From an uncultured cyanobacterium (lineage in GTDB: Bacteria; Cyanobacteriota; Cyanobacteriia; PCC-6307; Cyanobiaceae), in NCBI GenBank assembly GCA_963697335.1, contig CAVONQ010000009.1, positions 1 through 64,000 of the forward strand: DNA of 64,000 nucleotides, given 5' to 3'. A program made the translations under genes and the position numbers. This document shows positions 16,707 through 61,010 of this stretch, piece after piece. Each line of letters opens with the position of its first letter. Position 1 is the stretch's first letter. The notes under the pieces are model-generated. The model searched no databases and had not been told where the DNA came from. It was given only the letters and a program-made list of their open reading frames with translations.

Positions 16707-17084
16707 TCAGTCGCAACAGGGGGCGGCGGGCCGCCGGCACTGGGCATTGAGCCGGCCCAGCCACTGCTGCAGGGCGGTGATCGCCTGCGGTTGCAGGCGG
16801 TAGTAGATCCAGCGGCCCTGCTCGCGCCCCTCCAGCAGGCCAGCTTCTTTCAGCACCCGCAGATGGAAGGAGAGCTTCGACTGGGCCAGGCCCAGGTCCA
16901 CGGTGAGATCGCAGACGCAGCGCTCGCCGCCCGCGAGCGCCTCAATCACCTGCAGCCGCAGGGGATCCCCGAGGGCCTTGAGCAGCTGGCGGGCCTGGGT
17001 GTCGTCGAGGCTGTCCGCAGAGCGGTCAGCGAGGCTCGAGCCGCTGCCGACGGGCCGCGCTACAGGGGGGCTGGTCAGGGTCAT
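16707..17084 (-). CDS. arsR: ArsR/SmtB arsenite-responsive repressor
   Basis: LKALGDPLRL, ERCVCDL (alpha3 CxC), SKLSFHLRVL and C-terminal PCCD. Confidence 0.85.
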   Translation of the reverse strand: MTLTSPPVARPVGSGSSLADRSADSLDDTQARQLLKALGDPLRLQVIEALAGGERCVCDLTVDLGLAQSKLSFHLRVLKEAGLLEGREQGRWIYYRLQPQAITALQQWLGRLNAQCRRPAAPCCD

Positions 17085-52037: not shown

Positions 52038-52082
52038 CGGGGTGGGGCGGCAGGGGGGCCGGGAACAGGCGCTTGTTGTCTT

Positions 52083-52102
52083 TTATGCGCTTACAGCGAT
52101 AA
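52083..52102. promoter_or_regulatory. Candidate repressor operator upstream of psbA (D1')
   Basis: TTATGCGCTTACAGCGATAA imperfect palindrome, 13/20 identical to 59988-60007. Confidence 0.45.
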
Positions 52103-52192
52103 CAGGCTATCGTTTCCAGCAGGAGCTCGCCGGCGCGGCCCTTCGCGGCGCTGCCGGCGCTGGGCTCCTCGTCAACGCATCGCCTGGATCCC

Positions 52193-53272
52193 ATGACGAC
52201 AACCTCCCTGTCTCCCTCCCGCATCCCCCTCTGGGAAGCGTTCAAGAACTGGGTCACCAGCACCGACAACCGCCTCTACGTGGGTTGGTTCGGCGTGCTG
52301 ATGATCCCCACCCTGCTGGTGGCCACCTGCTGCTTTGTGATCGCCTTCATCGGTTCTCCCCCCGTCGACATCGACGGCGTCCGGGAGCCCGTCTCAGGCG
52401 GCCTGCTCTACGGCAACAACATCATCACGGCGGCGGTGGTGCCGAGTTCCAACGCCATCGGTCTGCACCTCTATCCGATCTGGGCCGCCAAAAGCCTCGA
52501 TGAGTGGCTCTACAACGGTGGGCCCTATCAACTGATCATCTTCCACTTCCTGATCGGCATCTTCTGCTGGATGGGCCGTGAGTGGGAACTCAGCTATCGC
52601 CTCGGCATGCGCCCCTGGATCGCCGTGGCCTATTCCGCTCCCGTGGCCGCTGCCACCGCCGTGCTGCTGGTGTACTCCATCGGCCAGGGTTCCTTCTCCG
52701 ACGGCATGCCCCTGGGCATCTCCGGCACCTTCAACTTCATGCTGGTGCTCCAGGCCGAGCACAACGTGCTCATGCACCCCTTCCACATGCTCGGCGTGGC
52801 CGGTGTGTTCGGCGGTGCCCTGTTCTCGGCCATGCACGGCTCCCTCGTCACCAGCTCCCTGGTGCGCGAAACCACGGAAACCGAGTCCCAGAACCGGGGT
52901 TACAAGTTTGGCCAGGAGGAGGAGACCTACAACATCGTGGCGGCCCACGGTTACTTCGGCCGACTGATCTTTCAGTACGCCAGCTTCAACAACAGCCGCA
53001 GCCTGCACTTCTTCCTGGCCGCCTGGCCCGTGGTGGGCATCTGGTTTGCGGCCCTGGCAGTGGCCAGCTTCTCCTTCAACCTCAACGGCCTCAACTTCAA
53101 CCACTCCGTGCTCGATTCCCAGGGCCGGGTGGTGGACACCTGGGCTGACGTGCTCAACCGCGCCGGCCTTGGCATCGAGGCGATGCACGAGCGCAACGTG
53201 CACAACTTCCCCCTCGATCTGGCGGCGGTTGATCGGGCCTCAGTGGCGCTCACGGCGCCAGCTCTCGGCTGA
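52193..53272 (+). CDS. psbA: Photosystem II D1, microaerobic D1' type
   Basis: Full-length D1 with D61, Y161, D170, E189, H190, H332, E333, H337, D342 and A344 intact. Carries the D1' markers G80A, F158L, T286A, plus P162S, F186L, A336V. Confidence 0.95.
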
Positions 53273-53328
53273 TCCTGTCGCGCCCAGGTGGCGCCTTCCC
53301 GTTCATCGTTCCCCTGCCTGGCTCTGCC

Positions 53329-53973
53329 ATGGATCTTCTCTTCCCCACCCTGCGGCGCATGCTGCCTCTGATGGCTCTGGCGGCCGCCTTCGCCCTGCTG
53401 GCCAGCCTGCTGCTGAGCCTCTGCCCGGCGCCCGCCCTCGCCCTGGAGGCGCCCGCCAACCCGGCCGGTCTCCCCCGGGCCGTCGAGGCGATGGAGCAAC
53501 TGGATGAGCTGCGCACGCAGCTGGCCTCCAGCCTCGAGGGCAGCAGCGAGGAGCCCAGCATGGACACGATGCGGGAGGTCTGCCGGCCCGTGGGCCTGCG
53601 GGCCATGGCCATCGGCAAGGAGAACGGCTGGACCGTGCGCCAGGTGGCCAGCAAGTACCGCAACCCCGACCATGCCCCCGCCGGCAGCCAGGAAACCGAG
53701 GTGATCGATCTGCTGGCGAGGCACCCCGAGATCACCGGCCTGTGGGAGCCGGCCGCGGCCGGCCAGGCCGCCGGTGTGAACTATTACCGCCGCATTGATG
53801 TGCAGCCCAGCTGCCTGGCCTGTCATGGCACCAAGGACAGCCGCCCCGGATTTGTGAAAAACAACTACCCCGCCGACAGGGCCTTCAACTTCAAGCCCGG
53901 CGATCTGCGCGGCATGTATGCCGTGTTCATTCCTGAGGTGCAGGAGGTGCTCAGGGCCTCTGAAGGAGGTTGA
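53329..53973 (+). CDS. Tll0287-like (DUF3365) exported c-type heme protein
   Basis: Signal peptide (..ALA), EVCRPVG (candidate distal Cys), KYRNP.HAP, CLACHG, Y..DRA.NF..GDLRG. Confidence 0.88.
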   Translation: MDLLFPTLRRMLPLMALAAAFALLASLLLSLCPAPALALEAPANPAGLPRAVEAMEQLDELRTQLASSLEGSSEEPSMDTMREVCRPVGLRAMAIGKENGWTVRQVASKYRNPDHAPAGSQETEVIDLLARHPEITGLWEPAAAGQAAGVNYYRRIDVQPSCLACHGTKDSRPGFVKNNYPADRAFNFKPGDLRGMYAVFIPEVQEVLRASEGG

Positions 53974-53975
53974 GC

Positions 53976-55247
53976 ATGCATTGCCAGGTGCTGATCGCCG
54001 GGGGCGGAACCGGGGGGATCACCGTGGCCAGCTGGTTGCGACGGCTGGCGCCGGAGCTGGAGGTCACGGTGGTGGAGCCCTCCTCCGTTCACGACTACCA
54101 GTCGGGCTGGGTGCTGGTGGCCGGCGGTTTCATCTCTGCGGCTGAAACCGAGCGCAGTGAGGCCTCGGTGATGCCCGAGGGGGTGCGCTGGATCTCCAGC
54201 AAGGTGGTGGCCTTCGATCCCGATCACCATGCCATCGAGCTGACCGATGGCCAGCGCCTCACCTACGGGGTGCTGGTGGTGGCGCTGGGCATCGACCTGC
54301 TCTGGAGCGCCGTGGACGGCTTGCCGGCAGCGCTGGGTGGCCATGGGGTCTGCAGCATCTACAGCCGCCGTTTTGCGGTGTACACCCGCGACTGCCTGCG
54401 CCGCTTCCAGGGCGGTACGGCCCTGTTCACCGAGCCCGCCACGGCGATCAAATGCGGTGGGGCACCCCAGAAGATCATGCACATTGCCGACCAGCAGTTC
54501 AAGCGGCGCAGTGGCGTGGGCGTGAATTCCAGGCTGATCTTCTGCACCGCCAAGAGCAGCCTGTTCCCCGTGCCGGCCTTCAACACCGCCATGGAGGCGA
54601 TCGCGGCAGCCCATGGCAGCGAGGTGCGCTACCGCCACAACCTGGTGGCCGTCAACGGCCCGGAGCGCCGGGCCGTGTTCCGGGTCCAGGAGCAGGAGGG
54701 CGGCGAGGGCCACGAGCTGGAGCTCGGGTTCGATCTTCTGCATGTGGTGCCGCCGATGGCCGCGCCCCGGGTGGTGGCGGATAGCCCCCTCGCCATCAAT
54801 GCCACGGAGGGCTGGGTGGAGGTGGATCCCCACAGCGGCCAGCATCCGCGCTACCCCGATGTGTTCGCCGTCGGTGATGTGGGCTCGTATCCCACCGCCA
54901 AGACAGGGGCGGGGGTGCGCATGCAAGCCCCGGTGGTGGCCGCCAATGTGCAGGCGGTGCTGCAGGGGGGCAGCGTGCAGCCGGGCTACGACGGCTACAG
55001 CGCCTGCCCGCTCATCACCACAGACCACAGCGTGATGATGGTGGAGTTCGACTACACCAACAAGCCCGTGAGCAGCTTCCTGGTGAATCCGGTGAAGGAG
55101 CGCTGGTTCGCCTGGTTGCTGGAGCGTTGGGGTTTTCCCTGGATCTACTGGAACCGCATGCTCAAGGCGCAGCCCCACGAGGGCGCCTACCTGAAGCCGT
55201 TCACGGGGCTGGCCCGGCGGCTGGGCCTGATGCGCTGGCAGAGCTGA
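53976..55247 (+). CDS. sqr: Sulfide:quinone oxidoreductase, type II-like (copy 2)
   Basis: IAGGGTGG, YQSGWVLVAGG, IKCGGAPQK, KTGAG, YDGYSACPL, VEFDY. Starts 3 nt after the DUF3365 stop. Confidence 0.87.
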   Translation: MHCQVLIAGGGTGGITVASWLRRLAPELEVTVVEPSSVHDYQSGWVLVAGGFISAAETERSEASVMPEGVRWISSKVVAFDPDHHAIELTDGQRLTYGVLVVALGIDLLWSAVDGLPAALGGHGVCSIYSRRFAVYTRDCLRRFQGGTALFTEPATAIKCGGAPQKIMHIADQQFKRRSGVGVNSRLIFCTAKSSLFPVPAFNTAMEAIAAAHGSEVRYRHNLVAVNGPERRAVFRVQEQEGGEGHELELGFDLLHVVPPMAAPRVVADSPLAINATEGWVEVDPHSGQHPRYPDVFAVGDVGSYPTAKTGAGVRMQAPVVAANVQAVLQGGSVQPGYDGYSACPLITTDHSVMMVEFDYTNKPVSSFLVNPVKERWFAWLLERWGFPWIYWNRMLKAQPHEGAYLKPFTGLARRLGLMRWQS

Positions 55248-55277
55248 ATCCAGCCAATCAATCGATCGGCTCGGGAA

Positions 55278-56051
55278 TCAGAGGATCTGCTCGAGGAAAC
55301 GGCGGCTGCGTTCGTGGCTCGGGTTCGAGAAGAACCGCTGCGGCGGCGCCTCCTCCACCACCTCGCCCCCGTCCATCAGCACCACGCGGTGGGCCACCTG
55401 CTGGGCAAAGCGCACCTCGTGGGTCACCACCACCATGGTCATGCCCTCGGCGGCCAGGCCCTGCATCACCTCCAGCACCTCGCGCACCATCTCGGGGTCA
55501 AGGGCGCTGGTGGGCTCATCGAAGAGCATCAGCTGGGGGTCCATGCACAGCGAGCGGGCGATGGCCACCCGCTGCTGCTGGCCGCCGGAGAGCTGGCCCG
55601 GGTATTTGTCCGCCTGCTCGGCGATCCCCACCCGCTCCAGCAGCTGGAGGGCCCGTCGCTTCGCCTCGGTGCGGCTGCGGCGGCGCACCAGCACCGGCGC
55701 CAGGGTGAGGTTCTCCAGCACCGTGAGGTGGGGGAAGAGGTTGAACTGCTGAAACACCATGCCCACCTCGCGGCGGATGGCGTCGATGTCGCGCAGGTCG
55801 GCGGAGAGGGGCCGGCCATCGATGTGAATGCTGCCCTGCTGAAAGTCCTCCAGGGCGTTGAAGGTGCGGATGAAGGTGCTCTTGCCGGAGCCCGAGGGCC
55901 CCATGATCACCACCACCTCGCCGCGCTTCACCGTGAGGCTGGCACCCCTGAGGGCCTGAAAGCCGTTGGGGTACCACTTGTGCACGGCCTCGGCCCGCAG
56001 GATCGGGGCCTGGCTTTGGTTCTGGGGGGTGGTGGGGGCGCTGGAGTCCAT
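55278..56051 (-). CDS. Polar amino-acid ABC transporter ATP-binding protein
   Basis: GPSGSGKST, MVFQQFNLFPHL, LSGGQQQRVAIAR, FDEPTSALDPE. Confidence 0.94.
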   Translation of the reverse strand: MDSSAPTTPQNQSQAPILRAEAVHKWYPNGFQALRGASLTVKRGEVVVIMGPSGSGKSTFIRTFNALEDFQQGSIHIDGRPLSADLRDIDAIRREVGMVFQQFNLFPHLTVLENLTLAPVLVRRRSRTEAKRRALQLLERVGIAEQADKYPGQLSGGQQQRVAIARSLCMDPQLMLFDEPTSALDPEMVREVLEVMQGLAAEGMTMVVVTHEVRFAQQVAHRVVLMDGGEVVEEAPPQRFFSNPSHERSRRFLEQIL

Positions 56052-56084
56052 CGGGATCAGAACGGGCGGGGTTGGAGCGGTGTC

Positions 56085-57338
56085 TCAGCCACTGGGGCTG
56101 TGGCGGGGATCGAGGCGGTGTTCCAGGGCGCGGCTTCCCAGGCCCAGGGCGGTGCAGCAACCCCAGAACAACACCGCCAGGGTGAGGTACACCTCGCCGT
56201 AGTGGCCCAGGAAGGCGGGGTTGGCCATCACGGCGCGGGCGGTGCCAAGCAGCTCCAGCAGGCCGATCAGCGACAGCAGCGTGGTGTCCTGCAGCAGTGA
56301 GATGAACTGGCTCACCATCACCGGCAGGGCCACCCGCAGGGCCTGGGGCAGCACCACGTGCTGCAGGGCCTGCAGCGGCCCGAGGCCGAGGGAGCGCGCC
56401 GCCTCCAGCTGGCCGGCGGGCACGGCGCTGAGGCCGGCCCGCACCGCCTCGGCCAGGTAGGCCGCCGCAAAGAAGGTGAGCACCCAGGCTGCCCGCCACA
56501 CCCGCTCTGGAGCCAGGCCCCCCGGCAGCAGAAAGCCGAGGATGTTCTGGCCGAGGAACAGCAGGGTGATCAGCGGCGCCCCGCGGATGAACTCGATGTA
56601 CAGCACCGAGCCCCAGCGCAGCAGCGGTAGCGGGCTGCGGCGGCCCAGGGCCAACAGCACCCCCAGGGGAAAGCAGAGCAGGATGGCGAAGCTGGCCTCC
56701 AGCAGGGTGAGCAGCAGGCCTCCCCACTCGGCACTGGAGACGGGCGCCAGCCCGAAGCCTCCACTGATCAGCACCATGCCCAGCAGGTAGAGCCCAGGCC
56801 AGAGCAGGGCCAGCCCCCGCAGCGCCCGCGACCCCAACTCAGGGCCCAGCCGCCCGGCCCAGCGGCCGGTGAGCCAGCGCAGCCCCACCAGCAGGACGGC
56901 CAGGGCGGCCCAGCGGCCGGCGATGGCGGGGCTGAGCTGCAGGGCCCAGGGCGTCCACAGGGCCAGCCCGGCGATCAGGCCACAGGCCCAGCGATCGGAG
57001 TTGGGCCAGGGGTTGCCGCGGCGGTCGGGCCGAGGCTGGCTGCGCAGCAGGCCCCAGCTCAGGCCACTGGCGGCACAGAGCAGGGCGAGCAGCAGCCACA
57101 GGCGCCACTGCTGTTGCAGCGGATAGCGCCCCACCGCGAACAGGGTGCTGTTCAGCTGAATCACCGCCCAGTTGGCGGAGCCCAGGGCCCAGCGCAGCAG
57201 GGCGATCAGGGCGCTGCCGATCAGGGCGATCAGGGCGACACTGAGCACGGTGTCGCCGCGGCTGGCGAACAGCTCCCGCTTCAGGGCGGCCAGCGGGCCA
57301 GGCCGGCCCGAGGACCTGGGGTTGGGGGAGGGCACCAT
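56085..57338 (-). CDS. Amino-acid ABC permease (AapM-like)
   Basis: WGGLLLTL, YIEFIRGAPL, AYLAEAVRAG, GQLEAARSLGL. Confidence 0.9.
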   Translation of the reverse strand: MVPSPNPRSSGRPGPLAALKRELFASRGDTVLSVALIALIGSALIALLRWALGSANWAVIQLNSTLFAVGRYPLQQQWRLWLLLALLCAASGLSWGLLRSQPRPDRRGNPWPNSDRWACGLIAGLALWTPWALQLSPAIAGRWAALAVLLVGLRWLTGRWAGRLGPELGSRALRGLALLWPGLYLLGMVLISGGFGLAPVSSAEWGGLLLTLLEASFAILLCFPLGVLLALGRRSPLPLLRWGSVLYIEFIRGAPLITLLFLGQNILGFLLPGGLAPERVWRAAWVLTFFAAAYLAEAVRAGLSAVPAGQLEAARSLGLGPLQALQHVVLPQALRVALPVMVSQFISLLQDTTLLSLIGLLELLGTARAVMANPAFLGHYGEVYLTLAVLFWGCCTALGLGSRALEHRLDPRHSPSG

Positions 57339-57339
57339 C

Positions 57340-58398
57340 TCAGCGCTCCCGGATCTGCACGAGCTGGTTGAGGCCGTTCATCAGGGCGGAGATCAGCAGA
57401 TCGAGCACCAGGTAGGAGGCCAGCAGCAGGATCACCACCTCCACGGCGCGGCCGGTCTGGTTGAGGGTGGTCTCAGCCACCGCATAGAGGTCGGGATAGC
57501 CCACGGCCACCGCCAGGGAGGAGTTCTTGGCCAGGGAGATGTACTGGGTGTTGAGGCCGGGCACGATCACCCGCAGGGCCTGGGGCAGCACCACATGGCG
57601 CAGGGTGGAGAACCAGCCCAGCCCCAGGGAGGCCGCCGCTTCCCACTGCCCCTGGGTCACCGCGGCGATGCCGCCCCGCACCACCTCGGCGATGTAGGCG
57701 CCGGAATACACCACCAGGCCGCAGAGCAGGGCGCCGAACTCCACGCTCAGCCGCAGCGGCGCCTGCCAGACGCCGTTCACCAGGCTGGGCCCGACCCAGC
57801 TCCAGCCGTTCGCGAAGCCGGCCAGGTAAAGCCCGGATTTGGCCAGGGTGAGGCCCGGCAGCTGGATGGCGGCGGCGCCGTTGGGCAGGGAGAGGAACAC
57901 CACGAAATACCAGAACACCAGCTGCACCAGCAGGGGGATGTTGCGCACCAGCTCCACATAGGCCCGCACCAGGCGGCGCAGCAGACCGTTGCTGCTGAAG
58001 TTGGCCATGCCTGCCGCCGTGCCCAGCAGGGTGGCCCCCACCAGGGCCGACAGCACGGCCCGCAGGGTGTTGGCGAGCCCCGCCAGCAGCGCCCGCCAGT
58101 AGGGCATGGTGGCGTCGAAGGGGATGGTGGTTTCGCCGATGGGGAAGCCGGCGGGCTGGCCCAGCCAGCGCCAGGTGAGCAGCAGGCCGGCGGCGGTGAG
58201 GTTGCGGATCAGGTTGCCGAGCAGGAACACCGCCACCAGCAGCACCGCCAGCCCGACGGCCGCCTGCACCAGCCAGGGCAGCAGACGGCGGTTGCGCCAC
58301 CAGGGCACCGGGGGATCCGCTGAACCGATCACTGAGCTGGTTTGGGGCGCGATCGGGGCCCCAGGCCTGGAGCGGTCGGGGCGGGGAGGCCGCGCCAT
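57340..58398 (-). CDS. Amino-acid ABC permease (AapQ-like)
   Basis: YVELVRNIPLL, AYIAEVVRGG, GQWEAAASLGL, KNSSLAVAVGYPD. Confidence 0.9.
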   Translation of the reverse strand: MARPPRPDRSRPGAPIAPQTSSVIGSADPPVPWWRNRRLLPWLVQAAVGLAVLLVAVFLLGNLIRNLTAAGLLLTWRWLGQPAGFPIGETTIPFDATMPYWRALLAGLANTLRAVLSALVGATLLGTAAGMANFSSNGLLRRLVRAYVELVRNIPLLVQLVFWYFVVFLSLPNGAAAIQLPGLTLAKSGLYLAGFANGWSWVGPSLVNGVWQAPLRLSVEFGALLCGLVVYSGAYIAEVVRGGIAAVTQGQWEAAASLGLGWFSTLRHVVLPQALRVIVPGLNTQYISLAKNSSLAVAVGYPDLYAVAETTLNQTGRAVEVVILLLASYLVLDLLISALMNGLNQLVQIRER

Positions 58399-59483
58399 CA
58401 ACGGAAGGGCTGGGCGTACAGCATGCCGCCCTCGTTCCAGAGCTTGTTGAGGCCCCGCTCCAGCTTGAGGCGCGAGTTGGTGCCCACGTTGCGCTCGAAG
58501 ATCTCGCCGTAGTTGCCCACGGCAGCGATCGCCTGCACGGTGAAGTCGGCGGGCAGCCCCAGCTGGCGGCCGAAGTCGCCCTCCACCCCGAAGAAGCGGC
58601 GCAGATCGGCCAGGTTGGAGTTGGCCTTGGCCTCGGCCAGCTTGGCCTCGAGATTGGCCTGGGTGATGCCCCACTCCTCCGCCTGGATCAGGGCGAAGAC
58701 CACCCAGCGCAGGGCATCGGCCCAGGCTGGATCGGCATTGGTGCTGGCCGGGGAGAGGGGCTCCTTGCTGAGCACGTCGGGCAGCAGCTGGTGCTGATCG
58801 GGAGCCGGGAAGCTGCTGCGCTTGCCGGCCAGCTGGGAGCGGTCGCTGGTGACGGCCACGCAACGGCCGCCCAGGTAGGCGGCGTAGGTCTGGTCGCTGG
58901 TCTGGAACTTCAGCGGGGTGTAGGCCACGTTGATCTCCCGCATCCGGTCGGCCAGGTTGAGCTCGGTGGTGGTGCCGCTCTCCACGCAGATCGGTTGGCC
59001 GGCCAGATCCCGCAGGCTGCTGATGCCGCGGCTGACGGGCGCCATCACCCCCTGGCCGTCATAGAAGGTGGTGGGCGCGAAGCTGAGGCCGTTGCCGCCG
59101 GCGGCGTCACGGCTGAGGGTGGCGGTGGTGTTGCGGGCGAGCATGTCCACCTCGCCGCTGGCCAGGGCCGCGAAGCGCTCACTGGAGTTGAGGTTGCGGT
59201 ATTCCACCTTGCCGGGATCGCCGAGCACGGCGGCGGCCACGGCCTTGCAGGTGTCCACATCGAGGCCGGAATAGGTGCCGTCGGCCTCCACAAAACTGAA
59301 GCCCGGCAGGGTGCCCTCCACGCCGCAGACGAGCTTGTCGCGGCCGGTGATGGCGGCGATCTTGGGGCTCTGGCTGCCGGCTCCGCCCTCCGGGGCGCAG
59401 GCCGCCAGCGGCAGCACCGCGAGCAGGGCGATCAAGGCCGTGGGGACAGCCGCGGCAGAACGGGAGGGCAAGGCTCGGGGCAT
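58398..59483 (-). CDS. Amino-acid ABC substrate-binding lipoprotein (AapJ-like)
   Basis: Lipobox LAAC, GLDVDTCKAVAAA, RNTT, SKEPL, VGNYGEIFERN. Confidence 0.92.
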   Translation of the reverse strand: MPRALPSRSAAAVPTALIALLAVLPLAACAPEGGAGSQSPKIAAITGRDKLVCGVEGTLPGFSFVEADGTYSGLDVDTCKAVAAAVLGDPGKVEYRNLNSSERFAALASGEVDMLARNTTATLSRDAAGGNGLSFAPTTFYDGQGVMAPVSRGISSLRDLAGQPICVESGTTTELNLADRMREINVAYTPLKFQTSDQTYAAYLGGRCVAVTSDRSQLAGKRSSFPAPDQHQLLPDVLSKEPLSPASTNADPAWADALRWVVFALIQAEEWGITQANLEAKLAEAKANSNLADLRRFFGVEGDFGRQLGLPADFTVQAIAAVGNYGEIFERNVGTNSRLKLERGLNKLWNEGGMLYAQPFR

Positions 59484-59580
59484 GGGGATCGGGGCCCCCG
59501 GGGGCCAGAGGTGGCGGGATCCTGTCATGCCCAGCTGCCCTGTGGTGTCGCAATGCACGCGGCAGGGCCAGGTCTTGGGT

Positions 59581-59919
59581 TCAGACGGCCTTGAGCTGCT
59601 GGAGCTGGGCCTCAAGCCGTTGCTTGAGGCGTTTCTGCACCAGGTCGCAGAGGTCGTCCACCAGATCGCTGTCGGCGTGCCAGATCGTGCGCACGCCATC
59701 GCGTTCACAGCGCACCAGGGTGGCGCGCTGCAATTGTCCAAGCTGCCGACTGATGTGGGACTGGGAGAAGCCGGTGGCCTCGATCAGGGAGGCCACATCC
59801 ATCGGCCCCTGCTTGAGCTGACAGAGGAGCTGCAGCCGCGCCGGTTCGCTCAGGATCCGGAAGAACTGGCTGAACTCTTCAAGCAACTGGGGGGAGGGCG
59901 GCTGGCCCGGACAAGACAT
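59581..59919 (-). CDS. ArsR-family regulator of the BigR/SqrR (persulfide-sensing) type
   Basis: LSEPARLQLLCQL (Cys in alpha2) and LVDDLCDL (Cys in alpha5); no alpha3 CxC. Divergent from the rhodanese remnant and tauE. Confidence 0.75.
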   Translation of the reverse strand: MSCPGQPPSPQLLEEFSQFFRILSEPARLQLLCQLKQGPMDVASLIEATGFSQSHISRQLGQLQRATLVRCERDGVRTIWHADSDLVDDLCDLVQKRLKQRLEAQLQQLKAV

Positions 59920-59987
59920 GGGTCTCTGATTACATGTTGAGGCAATTATGCAGTCCACATCAGGCGGGCGCCTTGCCCTTTGCCCCT

Positions 59988-60007
59988 CTATGCGGGTATC
60001 GTCATAA
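59988..60007. promoter_or_regulatory. Candidate operator between the BigR-like gene and the rhodanese/tauE unit
   Basis: CTATGCGGGTATCGTCATAA imperfect palindrome, overlapping a CATAAT -10-like hexamer. Confidence 0.45.
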
Positions 60008-60027
60008 TAGTTAGTAGGGCTCCTCCC

Positions 60028-60186
60028 GTGGCTACCACTAGTGCCGATTCGCTCGCCTCGGGGGCCGTCACCGTGATCGACGTGCGCGAGTCCGCGGGGC
60101 TTGTGCACCACAACGGTCAACACAGTGGCCCCGCCCTGGAACAGCTGCTGCTGGCGCTGATGCCCTGGAACCGGGTGAGCCTGTGA
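60028..60186 (+). pseudogene. Internally deleted YgaP-like rhodanese/DUF2892 gene
   Basis: 52 aa joining the rhodanese start (LASGAVTVIDVRE) to a DUF2892-type end (LLALMPWNRV). Catalytic Cys loop and TM helices absent. Confidence 0.7.
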
Positions 60187-61010
60187 CGGTTGCCGCCGTT
60201 GAGATGGTCACGGTTTCCACGCTGCTGCTGCTGGCCGGCGGAGCCCTGATCGGTCTGCTGCTGGCCGTGCTGGGGGCAGGCGGCTCAATCCTGCTGCTGC
60301 CCCTGCTGGTGAGCGGCGCGGCTCTGCCCACCCGCGAGGCGGTGCCGCTGTCGCTGCTGGTGGTGGCCCTGCTCGCCATGGCCAACGTGGGGCCCTACCT
60401 GCGCCGGGGCCAGCTGGCTCCCCGCCCAGCCCTGCTGCTGGGCGTGCCAGCCCTGGCGGGCAGCTGGATCGGCGGCAGCCTGGTGAAGGCGGGCCTGATT
60501 CCAGAAGTGCTGCAGCTGGGGCTGTTCAGCGTTGCCGCCGTGGCCGCCTCCTGGCTGCTGCTGCGCCGGGGTGCCCAGGCTGCCGGCCGCCCCCCCGGCG
60601 CCAGACCGGTTGCTGTGAGGGCCCTGGCCGCCCAGGGTCTGGGGGTGGGCCTGCTCACCGGCATTGCCGGGGTGGGCGGTGGCTTTGCGATCGTGCCGGC
60701 TCTGGTGCTGCTGGCGGGGCTGCCGATGGCGGTGGCCAGTGGCACCAGCTTGGTGCTGATCGCCGCCAATGCCGCGGTGGCCCTGGTGGCTCTGGGCCAC
60801 TGGCCCCAGGCGACGCTGCCGCTGTTGGTGCCGTTGCTGCTGGGGGGAGCTGCCGGAGGGCTGCTGGGACAGCGGCTGGCGCCCCACCTGCCGGAGCGGC
60901 GGCTGCGCCAGGGCTTTGCGCTGCTGTTGATCGGCTCGGCCCTGCTCACCGGGGGCGAGGCCTGGCAGCGGCAGCAGGTGCCGCCGACAGCGGCTGAGCG
61001 GGCTCAGTAG
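60183..61010 (+). CDS. Sulfite exporter TauE/SafE family
   Basis: LGAGGSILLLPLL and AGVGGGFAIVPALV repeats, A.GTSL..I. Confidence 0.9.
   Translation: MTVAAVEMVTVSTLLLLAGGALIGLLLAVLGAGGSILLLPLLVSGAALPTREAVPLSLLVVALLAMANVGPYLRRGQLAPRPALLLGVPALAGSWIGGSLVKAGLIPEVLQLGLFSVAAVAASWLLLRRGAQAAGRPPGARPVAVRALAAQGLGVGLLTGIAGVGGGFAIVPALVLLAGLPMAVASGTSLVLIAANAAVALVALGHWPQATLPLLVPLLLGGAAGGLLGQRLAPHLPERRLRQGFALLLIGSALLTGGEAWQRQQVPPTAAERAQ

Follow-up and report, generated by a model that had tools for sequence, protein, structure and literature searches.

BigR of Xylella fastidiosa and Agrobacterium (bigR-blh operon, PDB 3PQJ/3PQK), SqrR of Rhodobacter capsulatus (PDB 6O8K-6O8O) and YgaV of Escherichia coli are the described systems closest to the one treated here, an ArsR/SmtB-family repressor gene and two operator-like sites in DNA of an uncultured cyanobacterium of the Cyanobiaceae (contig CAVONQ010000009.1 of assembly GCA_963697335.1, positions 1 to 64,000; this whole stretch of 64,000 nucleotides is called the window). 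In the accessible part of PMC5595413, SqrR appears as a persulfide-responsive ArsR-type repressor of sqr in a phototroph, with three cysteines of which two are conserved, and the available text of PMC9774250 has YgaV, a SqrR/BigR homologue, repressing the gene of the membrane-anchored rhodanese YgaP. The regulator of the window resembles BigR in its winged helix and in an aligned helix-2 cysteine, and it has a second cysteine in its helix 5 that may be the partner; regulators of its type likewise face a metallo-beta-lactamase-fold dioxygenase with a rhodanese domain and a TauE-type membrane protein, and the operator likewise overlaps the promoter. In contrast to BigR, from which it is distant in sequence (E 8e-7), its inferred regulon includes photosynthetic genes, and its operator presumably differs in sequence from the BigR box. 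SqrR is alike in fold (Foldseek rank 9, TM 0.68), but shares only 22% identity with the regulator, whose host is an oxygenic cyanobacterium; the SqrR box, which we take to be ATTC-N8-GAAT, is unlike the TATG-N10-CATA found here. As with YgaV and YgaP, a YgaP-like rhodanese gene is involved: it follows the dioxygenase gene behind an operator on another contig of the genome (C6), and a remnant of such a gene follows the operator in the window. Unlike in E. coli, however, regulator and rhodanese are divergent or separate rather than part of one operon, and the regulon differs.

Sulfide poisons the water-splitting site of photosystem II (PSII). Little is understood, to our knowledge, of how cyanobacteria change from oxygenic photosynthesis to sulfide-tolerant or sulfide-driven modes and back, and the roles of Tll0287 and of D1', an isoform of the PSII protein D1, are open. 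Grim and Dick (2016; PMC5061849), in the part of the paper accessible to us, reported 15 genomes in which sqr, the gene of sulfide:quinone oxidoreductase (SQR), lies close to low-oxygen psbA and 27 cases in which it lies close to arsR-like genes, and they proposed that the regulation is linked; the linkage of psbA, sqr and arsR itself is therefore already known. The available text of PMC11304991 places petC2, arsR and tauE beside sqr. According to the accessible sections of 10.1101/2023.02.13.528314, PsbA2 (D1') of Thermosynechococcus elongatus is paired with the Cys/His-ligated c-type heme protein Tll0287, production of which depends on the psbA2 promoter and which was proposed to be a redox sensor or a subunit of an H2S-oxidising system. 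In Synechococcus PCC 7002, transcripts of psbA and petC increase with polysulfide; the available portion of PMC12466478 names no regulator. The ArsR regulators that adjoin sqr in other cyanobacteria (the Synechocystis plasmid suo genes, Geitlerinema sqr1/sqr2) differ in arrangement from that of the window, which is convergent with sqr and about 4 kb away from it. A further difference concerns T. elongatus, where psbA2 and tll0287 are presumably not adjacent and where we know of no regulator for the pair; in the window, the D1' and Tll0287-like genes are neighbours and are followed by sqr. The accessible parts of the papers on cyanobacterial sqr-arsR linkage define no operator and leave this family untreated, and a literature search, which left most subscription journals uncovered, found no paper defining the operator or tying it to psbA in picocyanobacteria. 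Systems of this kind are known; new are the members and the motif. Regulator, operator and core regulon are well supported computationally, and we are highly confident in their prediction, while an operator role for the site before psbA is plausible and is weighed below.

The regulator and its predicted operator

The regulator gene (59581-59919, reverse strand) encodes a protein of 112 amino acids, which a preliminary description of the window, made from the sequence alone, had taken for a BigR-like repressor of both tauE and the psbA-DUF3365-sqr unit, noting that BigR/SqrR repressors sense persulfide with a cysteine pair in helices 2 and 5. Pfam (PF01022, HTH_5, 39.7 bits; cut-off 22), NCBIfam (NF033788, 68.5 bits; cut-off 55) and the predicted fold all place it in the ArsR/SmtB family. 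The structure model (mean pLDDT 85.5) has helices at residues 10-23, 26-36, 42-49, 53-65 and 84-111 and strands at 69-74 and 77-82, and its best Foldseek matches were all ArsR/SmtB proteins. Helix 2 holds Cys33 and helix 5 holds Cys91; both are invariant in 42 of 42 distinct orthologues, with Cys71 of the wing present in 41 of these. In the phmmer alignment to 3PQJ, Cys33 falls on the helix-2 cysteine of BigR (...LvCtL), which we take to be the sensing residue (Cys42 of BigR, Cys41 of SqrR). By eye, the regulator has neither a histidine in helix 5 (84-111) nor a CxC; metal-sensing ArsR/SmtB proteins of the SmtB, NmtR and CzrA types use a helix-5 His/Asp/Glu site or a helix-3 CxC site. Given the gene context and the cysteine pair, the regulator probably senses persulfide.

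The label BigR-like holds for context and cysteines but not for sequence membership. The NCBIfam model for BigR, NF040642, yields 38.1 bits against a cut-off of 155, although it is the best specific model. The alignments to BigR and SqrR end before Cys91, and the spacing of 58 residues between Cys33 and Cys91, compared to the 66 residues that we assume for the BigR/SqrR pair, leaves the equivalence of the second cysteine unproven. Both points speak against a close assignment, and in sequence and fold SmtB and Rv0081 are closer than BigR/SqrR, with SmtB and NmtR as the best PDB sequence matches. The fold search was discarded as a means of placing the regulator, since it did not separate BigR/SqrR from metal sensors.

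The regulator has orthologues of 55-96% identity in 79 of the 201 genomes sampled from the family; its best relatives outside the family are at most 45% identical. Two copies are present in eleven genomes (G024, G039, G090, G103, G110, G113, G141, G143, G165, G179 and G185); in several loci a variant copy adjoins sqr and the D1' cluster, and in at least G165 the other copy lies on a different contig.

The unit that the regulator faces in relatives comprises a persulfide dioxygenase-rhodanese, a YgaP-like rhodanese and TauE, the classical BigR-type set. A divergent persulfide dioxygenase gene stands beside the regulator in 14 of the 16 relatives' loci holding it (two behind a methyltransferase gene), and in most of these 14 a small rhodanese gene and tauE follow. 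Regulator and Tll0287-like gene share one fetched stretch in 16 of 28 relatives' loci, the regulator usually being convergent with sqr. In the window itself, the sulfide genes directly linked to the regulator are a rhodanese remnant and tauE only.

The regions upstream of the relatives' regulator genes share one motif, often in two copies, of which one lies 19-25 bases before the regulator start and one about 33 bases before the dioxygenase start. De novo expectation-maximisation (EM) motif discovery on orthologous loci, a check that the preliminary description had suggested, was run without the window's own locus and recovered the motif, at no less than 19 bits, in 28 of 29 loci. The consensus is GCATAATGCGTCTATCGTCATA, which can be read as TTATGCG-N6-nTCATAA, a 20-bp palindrome that is imperfect, with a palindromic core TATG-N10-CATA and a central TAnnnT resembling a -10 box. 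In the window, the motif falls on site 2 (59986-60009, forward strand; 59988-60007 in the preliminary description; 35.1 bits), between the regulator gene and the tauE unit. As had been supposed, site 2 lies at the divergent promoter, inside TTGCCC-17-CATAAT (59980-60008, forward strand), which was detected by a promoter scan. From its sequence, site 2 is a conserved predicted operator of the regulator. The motif, its conservation and its places are established.

The regulator-proximal copy present in most relatives (window 59923-59960) has decayed in this genome and in the relative G106, and only CATAAT of the regulator's likely -10 survives there. A gene for a TPMT-like S-adenosylmethionine-dependent methyltransferase directly follows the regulator-proximal operator in several loci (L067 2472-3059, L081 480-971, L005, L014-L019) and is perhaps a further member of the regulon; this genome has a TPMT-family gene behind a DUF3122 gene on C6 (L107 4528-5436).

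The 2.58-Mb genome was scanned with a first matrix built from 23 sites of other genomes, which were chosen by a regular expression. Five distinct places reached at least 14 bits. Site 2 ranked first (C9:59986, 35.1 bits; before the rhodanese remnant and tauE), followed by a site before the dioxygenase-rhodanese fusion and the YgaP-like rhodanese gene (C6:16460, 33.7 bits), one within a glycosyltransferase gene in a low-GC island (C14:160365, 25.1 bits), site 1 before psbA (C9:52081, 22.7 bits) and a fifth at C18:209079 (14.3 bits). The third of these (C14:160365-160390; L106 3366-3391; 25-31 bits) was rejected as an operator: it lies inside a GT61 glycosyltransferase gene in an island of 44-49% GC and is probably a chance match in AT-rich DNA or non-functional.

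Among 47 loci, 41 sites scored at least 17 bits, and 39 of them have a gene of the sulfide set no more than 300 bases downstream. The regulator-side sites among the 41 partly overlap the training set; those before petC2, sqr and psbA do not. Sites of 20.8-32.4 bits occur 32-33 bases before petC2 in five genomes, where the petC2-type Rieske gene is a full-scoring PetC equivalog directly after the Tll0287-like gene (tll), and sites of 17.1-24.4 bits occur 59-101 bases before sqr in three genomes. The operator thus appears to go with sqr where sqr has its own promoter. Two psbA sites are independent of the training set, that of this genome and that of G106. Loci in which petC2 carries operator-like matches are L102 2151-2740, L076 7333-7925, L073, L078 and L082; the genome of the window has no petC2-type gene in its D1'-tll-sqr cluster.

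The psbA unit and its operator-like site

The psbA gene of the window (52193-53272, forward strand; Pfam Photo_RC; TIGR01151, 716.8 bits) encodes a product with identities of 82.5% and 79.1% to the three other D1 copies of the genome. Aligned with these copies, it carries the substitutions G80A, F158L and T286A and retains the Mn-cluster ligands D170, E189, H332, E333, H337, D342 and A344, a combination that we take to be the signature of D1' (low-oxygen, group 3) isoforms. By its sequence, this psbA is of the D1' type. It is followed by a gene for a Tll0287-like secreted c-type heme protein (53329-53973, forward strand; PF11845, 92.6 bits, cut-off 24.1), which contains CLACH and a further cysteine at EVCRP, and by a gene for an SQR-like flavoprotein (53970-55247, forward strand; Pfam Pyr_redox_2), which scores 189.8 bits with the NCBIfam model of type III SQR, under the cut-off of 525. 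In relatives, sqr orthologues adjoin tll as well. In the 56-base gap between psbA and tll no terminator-like site was found, and the start of sqr overlaps the stop of tll; a single transcript of the three genes is therefore likely. The metatranscriptome runs found (n = 3) contained a small share of the stretch, 0.06-0.08 of the sampled words.

A strict sigma-70 scan detected no promoter before psbA. However, GCTATCGTT in this region aligns with the element ACGCTAnnGTT that is conserved before the D1' genes of relatives, and includes TATCGT (52108-52113, forward strand), which the alignment suggests as a candidate -10 for the D1' promoter. With this assignment, the span of the operator-like site would be about -36 to -19. 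Across genera, nearly all D1' psbA genes are preceded, at a distance of 59-138 bases, by a conserved element (T/A)TCAACGCTAnnGTTnTAT, whose version in the window is AGGCTATCGTT (52104-52114); it may be a -10 region or the site of another factor.

Site 1 (52081-52104, forward strand; 52083-52102 in the preliminary description) lies 90 bases before the psbA start codon. The preliminary description had proposed that sites 1 and 2 are copies of one 20-bp semi-palindrome in AT-rich islands, aligned without gaps at 13 of 20 positions and each followed by yAG. The positions of both 20-mers, the count of 13 identities and the flanks (CAG 3' of site 1, TAG 3' of site 2) were all confirmed, as was the low GC content (8/20 in site 1 and 9/20 in site 2, counted by hand, in a window of 68% GC). 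As a signal, the 13 identities did not hold up. A comparison of the 155 bp upstream of psbA with the 260 bp that separate regulator and tauE, both strands included, gives 62 pairs of 20-mers matching at 13 or more positions, and the best pair (15/20) is located elsewhere than sites 1 and 2. In 300 mononucleotide shuffles of both regions, 27 +/- 13 such pairs occurred, with at least one in every shuffle. Raw identity was therefore rejected as evidence for a common site. The semi-palindrome is likewise weak, with self-complementarity at 10 of 20 positions in site 1 and 12 of 20 in site 2; the true symmetry, TATG-N10-CATA, is broken in site 1 (GATA), and an inverted-repeat search of both intergenic regions returned nothing at either site. 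The two sites are nevertheless alike beyond chance, because the matching positions are the conserved positions of the motif from orthologous loci. Of the proposed shared element, a well-conserved operator motif thus stands at site 2, and a weaker version with a degraded right half at site 1.

Site 1 consists of a perfect left half TTATGCG, a 6-bp spacer with a central TA and a right half GCGATAA in place of nTCATAA. The T preceding CATA varies among accepted sites (TCATA, ACATA, GCATA). With the first matrix, the exact probability of site 1 per position is 7.5e-9 under genome composition and 2.5e-7 at 50% GC, corresponding to 0.04 and 1.3 chance matches of at least 22.7 bits in the whole genome. 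With the EM matrix, site 1 scores 13.8 bits and is the sixth distinct place in the genome, 2.0 chance matches of this score being expected. This score falls within the range of likely secondary operators, as the sites before petC2, sqr and psbA span 5.3-31.4 bits under the same matrix.

Possible control of psbA: proposed model and rival explanations

Our model is that the 112-residue protein would act as a thiol-based repressor of the BigR/SqrR kind. A dimer on the operator would block RNA polymerase, the central TAnnnT doubling as the -10 box, and persulfide or polysulfide would cross-link Cys33 and Cys91 and thereby release the regulator from DNA. The high-affinity operators would be those at 59986-60009, controlling the rhodanese remnant and tauE, and at C6:16460, controlling the dioxygenase-rhodanese fusion and the YgaP-like rhodanese. 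Site 1 (52081-52104) would be a weaker operator, specific to this lineage, that covers -35 and spacer of the D1' promoter; since no separate promoter serves sqr here, sulfide would derepress the whole psbA(D1')-Tll0287-like-sqr unit. Binding, sensing chemistry, promoter positions, co-transcription and psbA control are what we infer from the sequences. That site 1 is a working operator controlling D1', Tll0287 and SQR we regard as plausible, with about even odds (0.5). A wider proposition is put forward tentatively: in picocyanobacteria of fresh and coastal waters, a single ArsR repressor that senses persulfide would directly turn on a whole sulfide mode of the photosynthetic chain, comprising D1', Tll0287-like protein, PetC2 and SQR alongside dioxygenase, rhodanese and TauE for clean-up. 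If true, reactive sulfur besides low oxygen would remodel PSII and cytochrome b6f, and the arrangement would be most compact in the lineage of the window, where a single operator would precede a single operon for D1', heme protein and SQR. The outcome is a defined operator, a candidate sensor and a few targets: dioxygenase-rhodanese, TauE and sqr, to which relatives add petC2 and this genome perhaps D1'-Tll0287. The idea of Grim and Dick (2016) can thereby be put to a direct test as a circuit in picocyanobacteria, which are small and culturable. Should psbA turn out to lie outside it, what is left would still be a clean new regulon belonging to a known class of repressors.

Several observations weigh against an operator function of site 1, and most of them would fit a rival explanation, which confines operators to site 2 and the C6 site. 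The psbA site would then be this lineage's version of an ordinary D1' promoter element near -35, recognised by RNA polymerase or some other factor (a low-oxygen regulator, for example), and would resemble the operator through AT-rich composition and a few chance substitutions. We consider this explanation a serious one, if somewhat doubtful. Alignment A1 places site 1 at the D1' promoter element TACGCGCyTATCGC of the relatives G173 and G223, which scores 7-10 bits. The selection of training sites by a regular expression inflates the invariant columns of the first matrix, and the 13.8 bits obtained with the EM matrix lie below every regulator-side site (19 bits or more), with two unrelated places scoring higher. 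Site 1 has a G at the C of CATA, which is invariant across all accepted sites. Among the relatives compared, a near-identical site 1 is found only in G106, the only close relative (Tll0287-like protein 87% identical; the next 79%), which carries it with one flank change at 20.9 bits (L061). The 5' region is about 90% identical to that of G106 throughout (counted by hand), so that the absence of changes in the 18-mer proves nothing. In G077 and G132, which belong to the same genus and have the same compact psbA-tll-sqr operon, the best scores before psbA are 2.4 and 1.9 bits. In the petC2 genera the sites come after tll, leaving psbA and tll upstream and outside the repressed unit. Finally, the signal to which D1' genes are known to respond is low oxygen, not sulfide. 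For petC2, a relation to low oxygen is cited in the accessible part of PMC11304991.

Other findings speak against this rival. The 155-bp region before psbA gives p values of 1.2e-4 to 1.7e-3 with the EM matrix and of at most 0.002 under every model tried. Left half, TTT flank and ATAACAG flank of site 1 together match the operator of the persulfide dioxygenase type in G106 at 19 of 27 positions, compared to 16 of 27 for the G173 homologue (hand count), and sqr, the expected target, has no other promoter here. Operator-like matches are also enriched before D1' genes in several lineages: 7 of 25 D1' promoters reach 11 bits with the EM matrix, compared to 11 of 10,302 genome windows of 250 bp and 6 of 1,343 low-GC windows, and 11 of 25 reach 9 bits with the first matrix, compared to 26 of 10,302 windows. 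Since the 25 promoters are related by descent, this enrichment is worth two or three independent observations, and the related loci in general are kin rather than independent samples, which again limits the support for an operator. Among compact operons with sqr fused behind psbA-tll, three of five genomes have a site before psbA, among them G219 with 16.0 bits (first matrix) and 21.0 bits (EM).

A different origin of the psbA site, as a functionless hybrid scar of recombination between dioxygenase and D1' promoters, appears improbable, although both loci have been rearranged. Compared by tblastn and blastn with G106, G077, G132 and C6, the 52-residue open reading frame (ORF) behind site 2 (60028-60186, forward strand; no family match) keeps only the N- and C-terminal ends of a YgaP-like rhodanese gene, and the persulfide dioxygenase gene that precedes the rhodanese in relatives is absent next to the regulator. 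Instead, C6:14700-16500 (L107 2224-3984) holds an intact dioxygenase-rhodanese fusion and a full YgaP-like rhodanese gene, with a near-identical operator and promoter CTCTATGCGGnTATnnTCATAATAGTTAGT. This operon adjoins a DUF3122 gene (L107 4140-4760), which shares 73% identity with the gene that relatives carry divergently to D1', and the conserved D1' promoter element TTCAACGCTACTGTGTTAT persists beside it; in G106, the DUF3122 gene (L108 2035-2260) is flanked by a short psbA remnant of N- and C-terminal codons. These traces point to an older D1' locus that was lost or moved, and the rearrangements as a whole suggest that dioxygenase and D1' promoters met in the history of the lineage. Homology between this genome and G106 begins three bases left of site 1, which would also suit a scar. 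However, G106 has the psbA site and yet an intact dioxygenase locus, so the site should predate the event on C6. Moreover, a single C-to-T change in the G173-type element suffices to yield TATGCG, and a scar could still be bound by the regulator. A transposed copy of the dioxygenase promoter before psbA was likewise considered and found unsupported, since in alignment A1 the region is homologous by position to the D1' promoters of G173 and G223.

Neighbouring genes

The TauE/SafE-family exporter gene (60183-61010, forward strand; Pfam TauE, 134.3 bits) overlaps with its start the stop of the rhodanese remnant; its orthologue in G106, 87% identical, follows the persulfide dioxygenase-rhodanese gene. 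Between sqr and the regulator, two ABC-transporter permease genes (56085-58863, reverse strand; Pfam BPD_transp_1) are kept in the same order in G106, G077 and G132; they are context and lie outside the inferred regulon. A second ArsR-family helix-turn-helix gene of the window is located at 16830-16967 (reverse strand), and its HTH_5 score of 61.5 bits is the best of the genome.

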